Positions 15,080 through 16,523 of a stretch of DNA of 26,370 nt are shown here, one piece after another. A model generated the notes under the pieces. That model ran no database searches. It was given only the letters and a program-made list of their open reading frames with translations, and was not told where the DNA came from. A program made the translations under genes and the position numbers. The stretch's first letter is position 1. Every line of letters begins with the position of its first letter. This stretch comes from a virus, in the UHGV virus genome UHGV-0117952. One strand, given 5' to 3'.

Positions 15080-16198
15080 TTATATTTTTTCGCAAAAAGA
15101 AGAATAATCTCCACAGATTAAGCAACTGACAAGCTCTCTTTGTGCGGGATATATTTGGGACTCATTTACAAGCCCTGTATATGGTAAGAGTGATTTATGT
15201 ATCAAGTTAAAAACGTGAGACTTCTCATTAGTTGTTAAACTTTTTTTGGATAATATGGATGCCAAGTGCTCAACGCAAATAACCAGCCATGCATTAAACA
15301 TTTTTACTATTTCTGCTTCATTTTTATTGCTTGATAAGATATAAATCAAACCTGTTTGTAATACCAAGGCTCTTTGTTTAATGGAGAAAGATGTTTTAGA
15401 TAGATGTGGTTCTTCATGGCGATTCAGAGAGTAGTAGCCCTTTCTTGCCAGTATAGATATCGTATTAGCTACAGTTAGGCTCTGGCAAGAAAAAAGCATA
15501 TCCTCATAGACTGAAATTGATGGGTTAAATAAGATGTTGTTATTGATTAGCAACTCTCTTTTAAAGAACTTGAAGATTTTTAATGATCTAAAAAGATGGT
15601 TTTTTATAATATCTGCTTTATTCGTGTCTGCCTTAAATGGGCGTACAGGAACCCCTCTCCCTGTAGAGGAAACCTGCTTGAAATATACAATGTCACTATT
15701 GTTTTTATAAGCTATCTGAATACCATCGGACAGTAAGTCAGAGTGAATGGAATCATCAGAGTCTAAGAAAAACACATAGCGACCTTTTGCGGATTTTATT
15801 CCCTCATTTCGCGGCGCTGATGCATTCCCTGAACCAACTGCTCTACGGATAATACGATAATTTATTTCTCTCGAAATGTTATATTCAATGGCGGCAATGC
15901 TCCTGTCAGTGGAACAGTCATCAATGAAAATAACTTCAAAACAATTTTTATCTATAGTCTGATTGTTTAAAGATTTAATGCATTCGAGAATAAGGGTTTC
16001 TCGGTTGTGAACCGGAATAACAACTGAGACATCAAAGGGATAAATAGAATTAATTTCATTAATTACCGTTGTGATTTTTAGAAGAGAAGTATGCAGGGCT
16101 GTTGTTAAAACAGCAGAAGATGAAATGTTTTCTTTTTTAGTGTTGCCTTTTATAGTATAATAAGGGCAATTATTTCGTAGTACAAAATCCACATTCAC
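15080..16198 (-). CDS. family-2 (GT-A fold) glycosyltransferase body; probable phase-variable gene
   Basis: 372 aa in this frame, with GT2 hallmarks VSVVIPVHNRE, FIDDCSTD, FFLDSDDS. About 30% GC. Frame has only a GTG start at 16198 with no usable Shine-Dalgarno and is open upstream through the repeat tract to a stop at 16265-16267. Confidence 0.8.
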   Translation of the reverse strand: MNVDFVLRNNCPYYTIKGNTKKENISSSAVLTTALHTSLLKITTVINEINSIYPFDVSVVIPVHNRETLILECIKSLNNQTIDKNCFEVIFIDDCSTDRSIAAIEYNISREINYRIIRRAVGSGNASAPRNEGIKSAKGRYVFFLDSDDSIHSDLLSDGIQIAYKNNSDIVYFKQVSSTGRGVPVRPFKADTNKADIIKNHLFRSLKIFKFFKRELLINNNILFNPSISVYEDMLFSCQSLTVANTISILARKGYYSLNRHEEPHLSKTSFSIKQRALVLQTGLIYILSSNKNEAEIVKMFNAWLVICVEHLASILSKKSLTTNEKSHVFNLIHKSLLPYTGLVNESQIYPAQRELVSCLICGDYSSFCEKI

Positions 16199-16409
16199 AC
16201 CTGGCTGGCTGGCTGGCTGGCTGGCTGGCTGGCTGGCTGGCTGGCTGGCTGGCTGTGAAATCTAATGCAAATTTCACCCCTTTATATTCGAAGTCAATAA
16301 CGAAGCAGTTTTCATTGTATAGCCATGTTTTTTTGATGTGGTCACGTAGTGTTGTTTTCTCAAAGAATCCAACTATATTTTCAGACATGGCAGTGATATC
16401 AGTTTTCAT
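16170..16409 (-). CDS. leader ORF of the glycosyltransferase (N-terminal 53 aa + SQPA repeat), out of frame with the GT body at this repeat number
   Basis: ATG at 16409 with GAGG Shine-Dalgarno 7 nt upstream. Runs through the repeat and terminates at 16170, 29 nt inside the GT frame. Frame offset to the GT body is +1 (211 nt between the two starts). Confidence 0.6.
   Translation of the reverse strand: MKTDITAMSENIVGFFEKTTLRDHIKKTWLYNENCFVIDFEYKGVKFALDFTASQPASQPASQPASQPARCECGFCTTK
16201..16247 (-). repeat. tetranucleotide simple-sequence repeat (CTGG)11 + CTG on plus strand, CAG(CCAG)11 on the coding strand; encodes (SQPA)n
   Basis: Read directly: 11 perfect CTGG units at 16201-16244 plus CTG. 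All three coding-strand frames are stop-free through the tract and encode permutations of Q-P-A-S. Confidence 0.95.
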
Positions 16410-16523
16410 TATGCAACCTCTAACGTTAATAATGTTTATGAATATTCAGAATGCTATCTCATAACATGAAGCATTATATCTGAACATTGTGACATGATTT
16501 AATGAAGTCATCAGCACATCATG

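Follow-up and report, generated by a model that had tools for sequence, protein, structure and literature searches.

In the usual account, Escherichia coli switches its surface structures by DNA inversion, as at fim, or by Dam methylation, as at pap, agn43 and gtr. Contingency loci built on repeat tracts are associated with Haemophilus, Neisseria, Campylobacter and Helicobacter and are rare in E. coli. The closest precedent for the locus described here is neuO of prophage CUS-3, by a likeness of kind and not of family. Within its open reading frame (ORF) neuO carries a heptanucleotide repeat in 2-93 copies, which makes capsule O-acetylation phase-variable, and it has been named a "mobile contingency locus" (PMC3046976). 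Here, we describe a gene for a glycosyltransferase of family GT2 on the minus strand of the virus genome UHGV-0117952, whose full length of 26,370 nucleotides (nt) is the window analyzed. The coding region of this gene contains a perfect tetranucleotide tract, and we think it very probable that the gene is a simple-sequence-repeat contingency locus, a slipped-strand ON/OFF switch carried as prophage cargo. Our confidence in the function of the enzyme is lower than our confidence in the switch.

Repeat tract and reading frames

The tract is 55 nt long, (CTGG)13.75 at 16201-16255, and on the minus strand the sequence reads ...GCATTAGATTTCA-(CAGC)13.75-GTGTGAATGTGGATTTT... (Table 1). Tandem Repeats Finder reports it with a period of 4, 13.8 copies and 100% matches as the sole strong tandem repeat in the 26 kb of the window, and (CTGG)5 occurs nine times, all overlapping within this one tract, against 0.00 expected from 100 shuffles. 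The leader ORF upstream of the tract runs from an ATG at 16409 to a stop ending at 16170 (79 amino acids, aa) and has a Shine-Dalgarno sequence, GAGG at 16420-16417, 7 nt 5' of its start. The body ORF downstream, 372 aa at 16198-15080, starts with GTG; it has no ATG upstream of its catalytic domain, and a reading of the sequence found no good Shine-Dalgarno for it.

The starts of leader and body are 211 nt apart, which offsets their frames by +1, and at 13.75 units the leader terminates 29 nt inside the glycosyltransferase (GT) frame. Start codons (ATG 16409, ATG 16388 and GTG 16277) occur in just one of the three frames that enter the tract, the other two being shut by stops 6-26 nt before it. 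A complete protein requires that 154 + L + 2, with L the tract length, be divisible by 3, which restricts the whole units to multiples of 3; and since one upstream frame alone has start codons, the enzyme should be made only at 12.75, 15.75, 18.75 units and so forth. With its 13.75 units, the window is therefore predicted to be in an OFF phase (phase +1), and the loss of one unit or the gain of two would join leader and body into a single ORF of ~441-445 aa, as reckoned from the 453-aa ORF found at 21.75 units. A sequence-only reading made earlier had described a tetranucleotide tract inside the ORF, between a leader with ATG 16409 and GAGG and a GT2 body with only a GTG start and no usable Shine-Dalgarno. 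That arrangement is borne out by the sequence and by Tandem Repeats Finder; the frame arithmetic (211 nt, the +1 offset, the stop 29 nt into the GT frame, fusion at minus one or plus two units) holds as well, as does the estimate of roughly 440 aa for the fused protein. The size then given to the tract, 47 nt or 11.75 units at 16201-16247, was too small by two units. The tract is indeed free of stops in every frame, as was remarked, but this is a trivial property, since a repeat of 4 nt yields one set of four codons whichever frame is read.

Megablast of the low-GC island that holds the gene against 5,426 complete E. coli genomes found it in 29, always between the same tail-fiber and tail-sheath genes, and the tract was measured in the 29 loci retrieved; a more sensitive search detected the leader module in 32 genomes. 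Tract length in the 29 ranges from 7.5 to ~87 units; where the tract is perfect, in 27 genomes, lengths differ from one another only by whole 4-nt units, and perfect purity holds up to 267 nt. All three phases occur among these 27 clean genomes, with seven ON and 20 OFF, proportions compatible with 1/3 (p = 0.54). The seven carry one fused ORF of 449-513 aa, which the Prokaryotic Genome Annotation Pipeline (PGAP) annotates as a single GT coding sequence (453 aa in ATCC 11303, 485 aa in B-DolR and 513 aa in strain 4069). For the out-of-frame genomes PGAP calls a 370-aa GT together with a small "hypothetical" or "PT domain" protein, and one OFF-phase leader bears the label "PT domain-containing protein".

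Variation extends to near-identical strains and arises within the timescale of laboratory culture. E. coli B and three of its drug-resistant derivatives have 35.75 units, two further derivatives have 34.75, and one has 45.75, which is in frame; tracts of the B lineage span 7.75-59.75 units (REL606 7.75, AS19 10.75, ATCC 11303 21.75, another 59.75), and the sister cheese isolates CFSAN061763 and CFSAN061768 have 8.5 and 7.5. The 30 matching genomes include no BL21 or BL21(DE3) record, unlike other B-lineage strains (REL606, B, ATCC 11303 and AS19), so that the island seems to be missing from the BL21 branch. Three marks of a contingency locus, a perfect and over-long tract, polymorphism by whole units and natural alleles that are in frame, are found here. 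The sequence-only reading had proposed a slipped-strand contingency locus, at present OFF, in a prophage cargo GT gene beside a tail-fiber gene, and had suggested comparing tract length among related genomes; the tract proves strongly polymorphic, even between isogenic genomes, and the 4-nt steps and fused alleles support that proposal.

Could these length differences be sequencing or assembly artifacts of a hard repeat? Short-read assemblies do break at the tract, and two long-read assemblies are noisy inside long tracts. We regard an artifact as next to impossible, since 27 complete genomes hold perfect tracts that differ by whole units only over a 9-fold range, the differences recur among isogenic strains sequenced by one group, and the variation was detected independently in Illumina data of clones from the long-term evolution experiment (LTEE) (PMC5918244). 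As a general explanation, assembly artifact is ruled out by the perfect whole-unit tracts. In the LTEE study, the Methods of Leon et al. exclude a "hypervariable 7xCCAG repeat" of REL606 from analysis (PMC5918244). Because we mapped the REL606 tract to 2103888-2103918, that hypervariable repeat is the same tract, and its hypermutability has already been seen experimentally in LTEE clones, but was handled as noise. This Methods sentence is the sole mention of the locus that we found; a literature search that covered few subscription journals returned no functional description of it, papers on P2 hotspots make no mention of a glycosyltransferase, and the phage GenBank collection holds no match to the island.

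In the mechanism we propose, slipped-strand mispairing during replication would add or remove 4-nt units, and translation from ATG 16409 would reach the catalytic domain in one phase of three, stopping in the other two either at the end of the tract or 29 nt past it. Switching within a clone would be reversible and of high frequency, and the ON alleles would differ in the length of an (SQPA)n loop according to their unit number. The ON enzyme would then glycosylate a precursor of a surface polymer at the cytoplasmic face, and this glycosylation may alter recognition by the host or by phages, plausibly including the phage of the adjoining tail fiber or spike gene.

Across 30 sequences the leader peptide is identical in all 30 and the body ORF, in six alleles, is intact in all 30. 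With two thirds of genomes OFF, intact flanking ORFs are to be expected only of a protein under selection whose OFF states do not last. A hypermutable microsatellite without a selected role, lying in dispensable cargo and flipping as a by-product of mutation, would leave no reason for ORFs to stay intact in 30/30 on both sides of the tract, and it also fits poorly with a tract that is perfectly pure up to 267 nt, that lies in a gap-prone surface loop tolerant of insertions and that recombination has joined, together with the leader, to a divergent GT body of a second phage family, a body that is also found without repeats (see below). It does agree with phase frequencies no different from the 1/3 expected under drift alone, with the LTEE authors taking the tract purely as noise (PMC5918244), with the lack of a known phenotype for the locus and with its persistence in rough B strains, where a surface-glycan role is doubtful. 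On balance, we consider such a neutral microsatellite unlikely.

A selected switch has its own weak points, and these count against it. Clonal heterogeneity and reversibility are deduced from comparing genomes and not from read-level data, and many of the 29 genomes are related (12 have the E. coli B allele), so that the counts are non-independent. The long tracts of DETEC-P881 and HET6 are noisy in assembly, their phase calls are unreliable, and both were left out of the phase counts; among close alleles, substitutions are too few for the ratio of nonsynonymous to synonymous rates (dN/dS) to be meaningful. The rough strain E. coli B nevertheless keeps the ORF intact. A leaderless body could be made in OFF phases, given a GTGTGA overlap and a weak AGG described below, and the acceptor, the phenotype and any benefit to phage or host are predictions.

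The homologs argue that leader and body are one gene. A protein search found full-length, unsplit relatives, among them P0001, a 429-aa E. coli protein that reads ALDFTASQPGVNVDF at the site of the tract, a minimal, interrupted version of 2.5 units that is also present in an IMG/VR prophage contig. The unsplit homolog P0005 reads ASQPASQPA there, and P0003, P0007 and P0008, the last from Leclercia, have no repeat and unrelated short loops. Unsplit homologs retain the leader at identities down to 37%; its residues W29, V37, F40, Y42, F47 and A48 are invariant in the homolog alignment, in which the tract sits exactly at a gap-prone loop flanked by the leader and the start of the body. Homologs lacking the tract and yet keeping two ORFs, which the sequence-only reading had named as evidence that would speak against it, did not turn up; those with no repeat or a minimal tract are single ORFs. 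An AlphaFold (AF2) model built on the homolog alignment (predicted local distance difference test, pLDDT, 88; predicted template modeling score, pTM, 0.84) has an N-terminal domain of two helices, strands 25-31, 35-42 and 45-53, a loop at 54-57 and strands 58-64 and 79-86, followed by a long linker helix into the GT-A domain. In this model the leader makes up one half of the conserved N-terminal domain and is no separate peptide, and the tract encodes an expandable (SQPA)n hairpin loop inside this small alpha/beta domain.

As the tract falls in a turn between strands of one sheet, a GTG-initiated body would lack half of that sheet. This bears on the suggestion that the body is made at any tract length, ribosomes either initiating internally at GTG 16198 or 16192 or reinitiating after termination at GTGTGA, with the tract serving as a modulator of the attachment of the N-terminal half-domain or of linker length. 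In phase 2 the leader TGA does overlap the GTG start of the body (GTGTGA), and a weak AGG lies 7 nt 5' of the in-frame GTG at 16192. There is also a precedent in NeuO, whose activity, as work attributed to Bergfeld et al. in 2007 reportedly found, is tuned by the length of the repeat-encoded peptide. However, the body has neither an ATG nor a good Shine-Dalgarno, by the AF2 model it would begin in the middle of a five-stranded sheet, and the N-terminal half is still fused to the body in all homologs without repeats, with conservation reaching down to 37% identity. In phase 1, that of the window, the leader stop lies 29 nt downstream of the GTG, which leaves no coupling geometry. We therefore hold translation of the body at every tract length to be improbable, more so than a neutral microsatellite, and favor an ON/OFF switch of a single gene.

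A segment with the conserved motif of the N-terminal domain, W-x-Y/F-x-N-x-x-x-V-x-D-F ... F-A-x-D-F, is C-terminal in the Psychrobacter and Campylobacter homologs (P0027 and P0048, compared with P0001). The position of the small domain, N-terminal or C-terminal, suggests that domains have been permuted within this GT family. Our guess for its role is oligomerization or polymer binding. In a scan of genomes representing species, generic GT2 genes dominated the output, and the relatives returned were only those of Psychrobacter and Campylobacter, which lack the N-terminal arrangement; no other enterobacterial species came up.

Enzyme and acceptor

The body matches the Pfam family PF00535 (GT2) with an E value of 3e-28 (99 bits against a cutoff of 23.3). 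By sequence, the nearest solved proteins are Staphylococcus aureus TarS (E 4e-38) and TarP (E 2e-30), followed by Listeria monocytogenes RmlT; identity in these best matches is 27% over ~320 residues. Foldseek searches with the AF2 model returned TarS, TarP and RmlT at E values of 1e-25 to 1e-17, with template modeling (TM) scores normalized to the target of 0.80-0.87 and root-mean-square deviations of 2.6-3.7 Å over ~320 columns; the query TM scores are 0.62-0.66 and the TM score against full-length TarS is 0.50, the catalytic and helical part alone being covered. D203-S-D-D206 and E289-D290 are invariant in 14 homologs and align with the DSDD and ED of TarS and TarP. The catalytic site is marked by D198 in RmlT and by residues 181-187 in TarP, and all three proteins belong to GT2 and use poly(ribitol-phosphate) wall teichoic acid as their acceptor (PMC11697029).

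No membrane-spanning segment was found in the protein, the maximum 19-residue hydropathy being 1.26. PHROG families labeled "GtrB-like" match the catalytic core, and the nearest PHROG is the unannotated phrog_22088. A gtrABC cassette for O-antigen glucosylation was considered and rejected, as the locus has a single GT gene, no gtrA or gtrC partner ORFs and no transmembrane helix. We take the full-length product to be a soluble GT of ~430-510 aa, in which a small alpha/beta domain at the N-terminus precedes a GT-A domain resembling those of TarS, TarP and RmlT and a C-terminal region of helices.

E. coli is not known to make wall teichoic acid, so its enzyme must act on a different acceptor. 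A homolog from Campylobacter coli (47% identity) is located in a capsule locus beside a fusion of IspD and short-chain dehydrogenase (CDP-ribitol-synthase-like) and a TagF-type Glyphos_transf gene, which is the gene set expected for a teichoic-acid-like capsule. Given this capsule setting and the ribitol-phosphate polymers glycosylated by the nearest relatives, an acceptor of capsule or polyol-phosphate type is at least as likely as the proposed lipopolysaccharide (LPS) or O-antigen. The acceptor would be made on the cytoplasmic face and may be a polyol-phosphate-containing capsule or O-antigen rather than the LPS core.

Prophage setting and movement of the module

The window is a composite prophage in which a Mu-like contractile-tail module, the GT island and a P2-type tail module are followed by a host-like peptidase U32 gene (24329-25690, minus strand). 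The Mu-like module, at 2225-14867, encodes a sheath (2225-3721, phrog_165), a tube, a tape measure (4488-6320), gpN-like and gpP-like hub proteins, a baseplate wedge and a fiber (12006-14867). The second module, at 17303-24056, has a tail-sheath gene from 17303 (phrog_23; its RefSeq homologs are named "phage tail sheath protein"), four ORFs and an Ogr/Delta zinc-finger gene. The four ORFs we take to be P2 FII, E, T and U-D, which they match in order and size. The GT island lies exactly at the junction of these two tandem tail modules, both complete, which marks the prophage as composite or as a defective hybrid. The adjacency of fiber, GT and sheath genes is kept in 29/29 genomes, and the site of the island presumably corresponds to the Z/fun cargo slot of P2. 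The island has a GC content of 33-37%, compared with ~55% in its flanks; the sequence-only reading had correctly placed a low-GC island right after the tail-fiber gene and had put its GC content too low, at roughly 30%. Elsewhere in the tail module, a 170-aa ORF at 6402-6914, in a pocket of 32% GC between the tape-measure and gpN-like genes, matches phrog_8976 and no Pfam family, and looks like a second cargo gene (moron).

The same module is found in a second phage setting. The partial protein clusters P0010 (63 members) and P0004 (24) begin at the residue just after the tract, and their genes were confirmed at contig ends in >25 short-read assemblies, beside a P22-type tailspike gene (Head_binding + Peptidase_S74) and near Arc/Mnt. 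A further cluster named "partial", P0002 (181 members), starts at the same point. In the complete genome GMF054, a P22-like prophage at torT has a leader 92% identical in nucleotides to that of the window, a tract of (CAGC)70.5, that is 70.5 units, beside the tailspike gene, and a GT body that is a P0010 allele with ~55% protein identity to the body of the window. A body 85% identical to that of GMF054 occurs with a repeat-free N-terminus as a single ORF of 434 aa. Five IMG/VR prophage contigs carry the locus, with tracts of 2.5 to at least 22.75 units, and two of the five start inside the tract. The 70-unit tract is covered on its opposite strand by a 160-aa PGAP call, a "hypothetical protein" (L038 3706-4188). 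Both P2-slot and P22-slot copies are present in three strains, NZ_CP029371 ("strain C"), NZ_CP116970 (CUVM3) and NZ_CP075716 (CPww7), and two loci per genome, if both are repeat-switched, could give four combinatorial states.

The 5' region also shows signs of conservation. The TATAAT of a promoter-like site (Table 1) is invariant, and its -35 element nearly so, across four loci that include a P22-like-slot locus with otherwise diverged surroundings. Blocks of the ~235-nt 5' untranslated region (UTR) are kept between P2-slot and P22-slot loci with diverged flanks (L037 3790-4000; L038 3490-3751). A second TATAAT-like box is located near 16475, within the conserved blocks. Neither the 5' UTR nor the surroundings of the tract match an Rfam family above threshold. 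The stretch 16410-16760, in the promoter and 5' UTR region, contains no GATC, which makes a Dam/OxyR switch of the gtr type unlikely there, and an epigenetic switch of this kind (gtr, agn43) was rejected on that ground. Between the convergent tail-fiber and GT genes lies a stem-loop that is probably a transcription stop; the terminator scan did not call it, and its T-run is on the atypical side for either transcript.

Together, these observations permit a wider reading, which we offer tentatively and think somewhat doubtful. The locus may be a mobile, modular switch cassette, consisting of promoter, conserved 5' UTR, half-domain leader and (CAGC)n, that has been recombined onto divergent TarS/TarP-like bodies, has moved between slots for cargo next to receptor-binding genes in unrelated temperate phages, P2-like and P22-like, and would stochastically glycosylate a polyol-phosphate capsule or O-antigen. 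If so, E. coli would have a decoration system of the teichoic-acid type, and lysogens would gain a bet-hedged change of a phage receptor or immune epitope. More generally, a tetranucleotide switch on temperate-phage cargo in E. coli would mean that phages can spread ready-made stochastic switches between strains. The presence of the locus in E. coli B and REL606 means that strains, genetics and thousands of sequenced evolved clones already exist for studies of switching rates and phenotype. The tract also has practical effects, namely broken short-read assemblies, "partial" or split gene calls, spurious opposite-strand ORFs and silent filtering from mutation lists.

Table 1. Positions of the tract, the gene and associated features in the window
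Feature	Position	Strand	Basis
Promoter-like site, TTCACA-17 nt-TATAAT, ~235 nt before the start codon; putative function	16646..16674	minus	11/12 match
Long 5' UTR with conserved blocks, including GAGG 16420-16417	16410..16645	minus	sequence comparison
Leader, codons 1-51 of the full-length enzyme, forming two helices and three beta-strands	16256..16409	minus	alignment, AF2 pLDDT ~90
Hypermutable tract, (CAGC/CCAG)13.75 on the coding strand and (CTGG)13.75 on the plus strand; encodes (SQPA)n	16201..16255	minus	Tandem Repeats Finder, shuffles
TAA ending the leader frame at the present repeat number (predicted OFF, phase +1)	16170..16172	minus	ORF reading
GT body, 372 codons: last two N-domain strands and linker helix, GT-A domain, helical C-terminal region; out of frame with leader	15080..16198	minus	ORF, Pfam, model
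GT2 catalytic core PF00535, body residues 58-191, including the DSDD metal/nucleotide-sugar motif	15626..16027	minus	Pfam
11-bp GC-rich perfect stem-loop (GCCCCTCACCC/GGGTGAGGGGC) with A9/T9 run, between convergent tail-fiber and GT genes	15011..15040 (wider delimitation 15002-15040)		sequence reading

Comparison with known systems

Several described systems share part of what is seen here. Like gtrABC of P22-like and other Salmonella and Shigella phages, the gene is cargo beside a tail fiber or spike gene, matches "GtrB-like" PHROG families and is predicted to act in polysaccharide glycosylation. It differs from gtrABC in having no gtrA or gtrC partners and no membrane span, and in carrying a repeat tract instead of a Dam/OxyR epigenetic switch.

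With regard to the enzyme, TarS, TarP and RmlT are likewise GT2 proteins with the DSDD and catalytic ED in common, and TarP is also carried on prophages (PMC9837562). Unlike these three, the enzyme described here has no C-terminal oligomerization domain and has instead a small alpha/beta domain, which is N-terminal in enterobacteria and C-terminal in Campylobacter and Psychrobacter. We met no simple-sequence-repeat switch for TarS, TarP or RmlT in PMC11697029 or PMC9837562.

With regard to the switch, the Haemophilus influenzae loci lic2A, lgtC and lex2A also have a perfect tetranucleotide tract near the 5' end of the ORF, are ON in one phase of three and vary between isolates, and the switched product of lic2A and lgtC is a glycosyltransferase. 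The switch logic of our locus is that of the Haemophilus lic2A/lgtC tetranucleotide loci, and the unit of the modA tracts in Haemophilus and Neisseria, AGCC, is the same repeat in another register. The Haemophilus glycosyltransferases of lipooligosaccharide (LOS) belong to other GT families and act on LOS. The Haemophilus and Neisseria loci are chromosomal, in small-genome, host-restricted pathogens that are rich in them, whereas the tract described here belongs to the cargo of a temperate phage in E. coli, a species with very few such loci. Some of those loci also have alternative starts that give graded levels, whereas here the start codons are in one frame only.

The likeness to neuO of CUS-3 goes furthest. 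Both are E. coli prophage cargo with a repeat inside the 5' part of the ORF, a unit that is not a multiple of 3 and a wide range of copies (2-93 in neuO, 2.5 to ~87 here), and strand slippage would switch both, the repeat being translated into a tolerated peptide. NeuO modifies a surface polysaccharide, as is predicted for our enzyme. The P22-like-slot copies are, as in CUS-3, cargo of a P22-like prophage directly beside the tailspike gene, and the GT gene of the window, directly after a tail-fiber gene, shares the position next to a receptor-binding protein gene. The two differ in that neuO has the heptanucleotide AAGACTC 2 nt after its start codon, whereas the tetranucleotide here lies in a domain loop 154 nt into the ORF; in that the acceptor of NeuO, polysialic acid, is known and ours is predicted; and in that NeuO is an O-acetyltransferase with a left-handed beta-helix and our enzyme a GT2, so that the two loci are analogous and not homologous.

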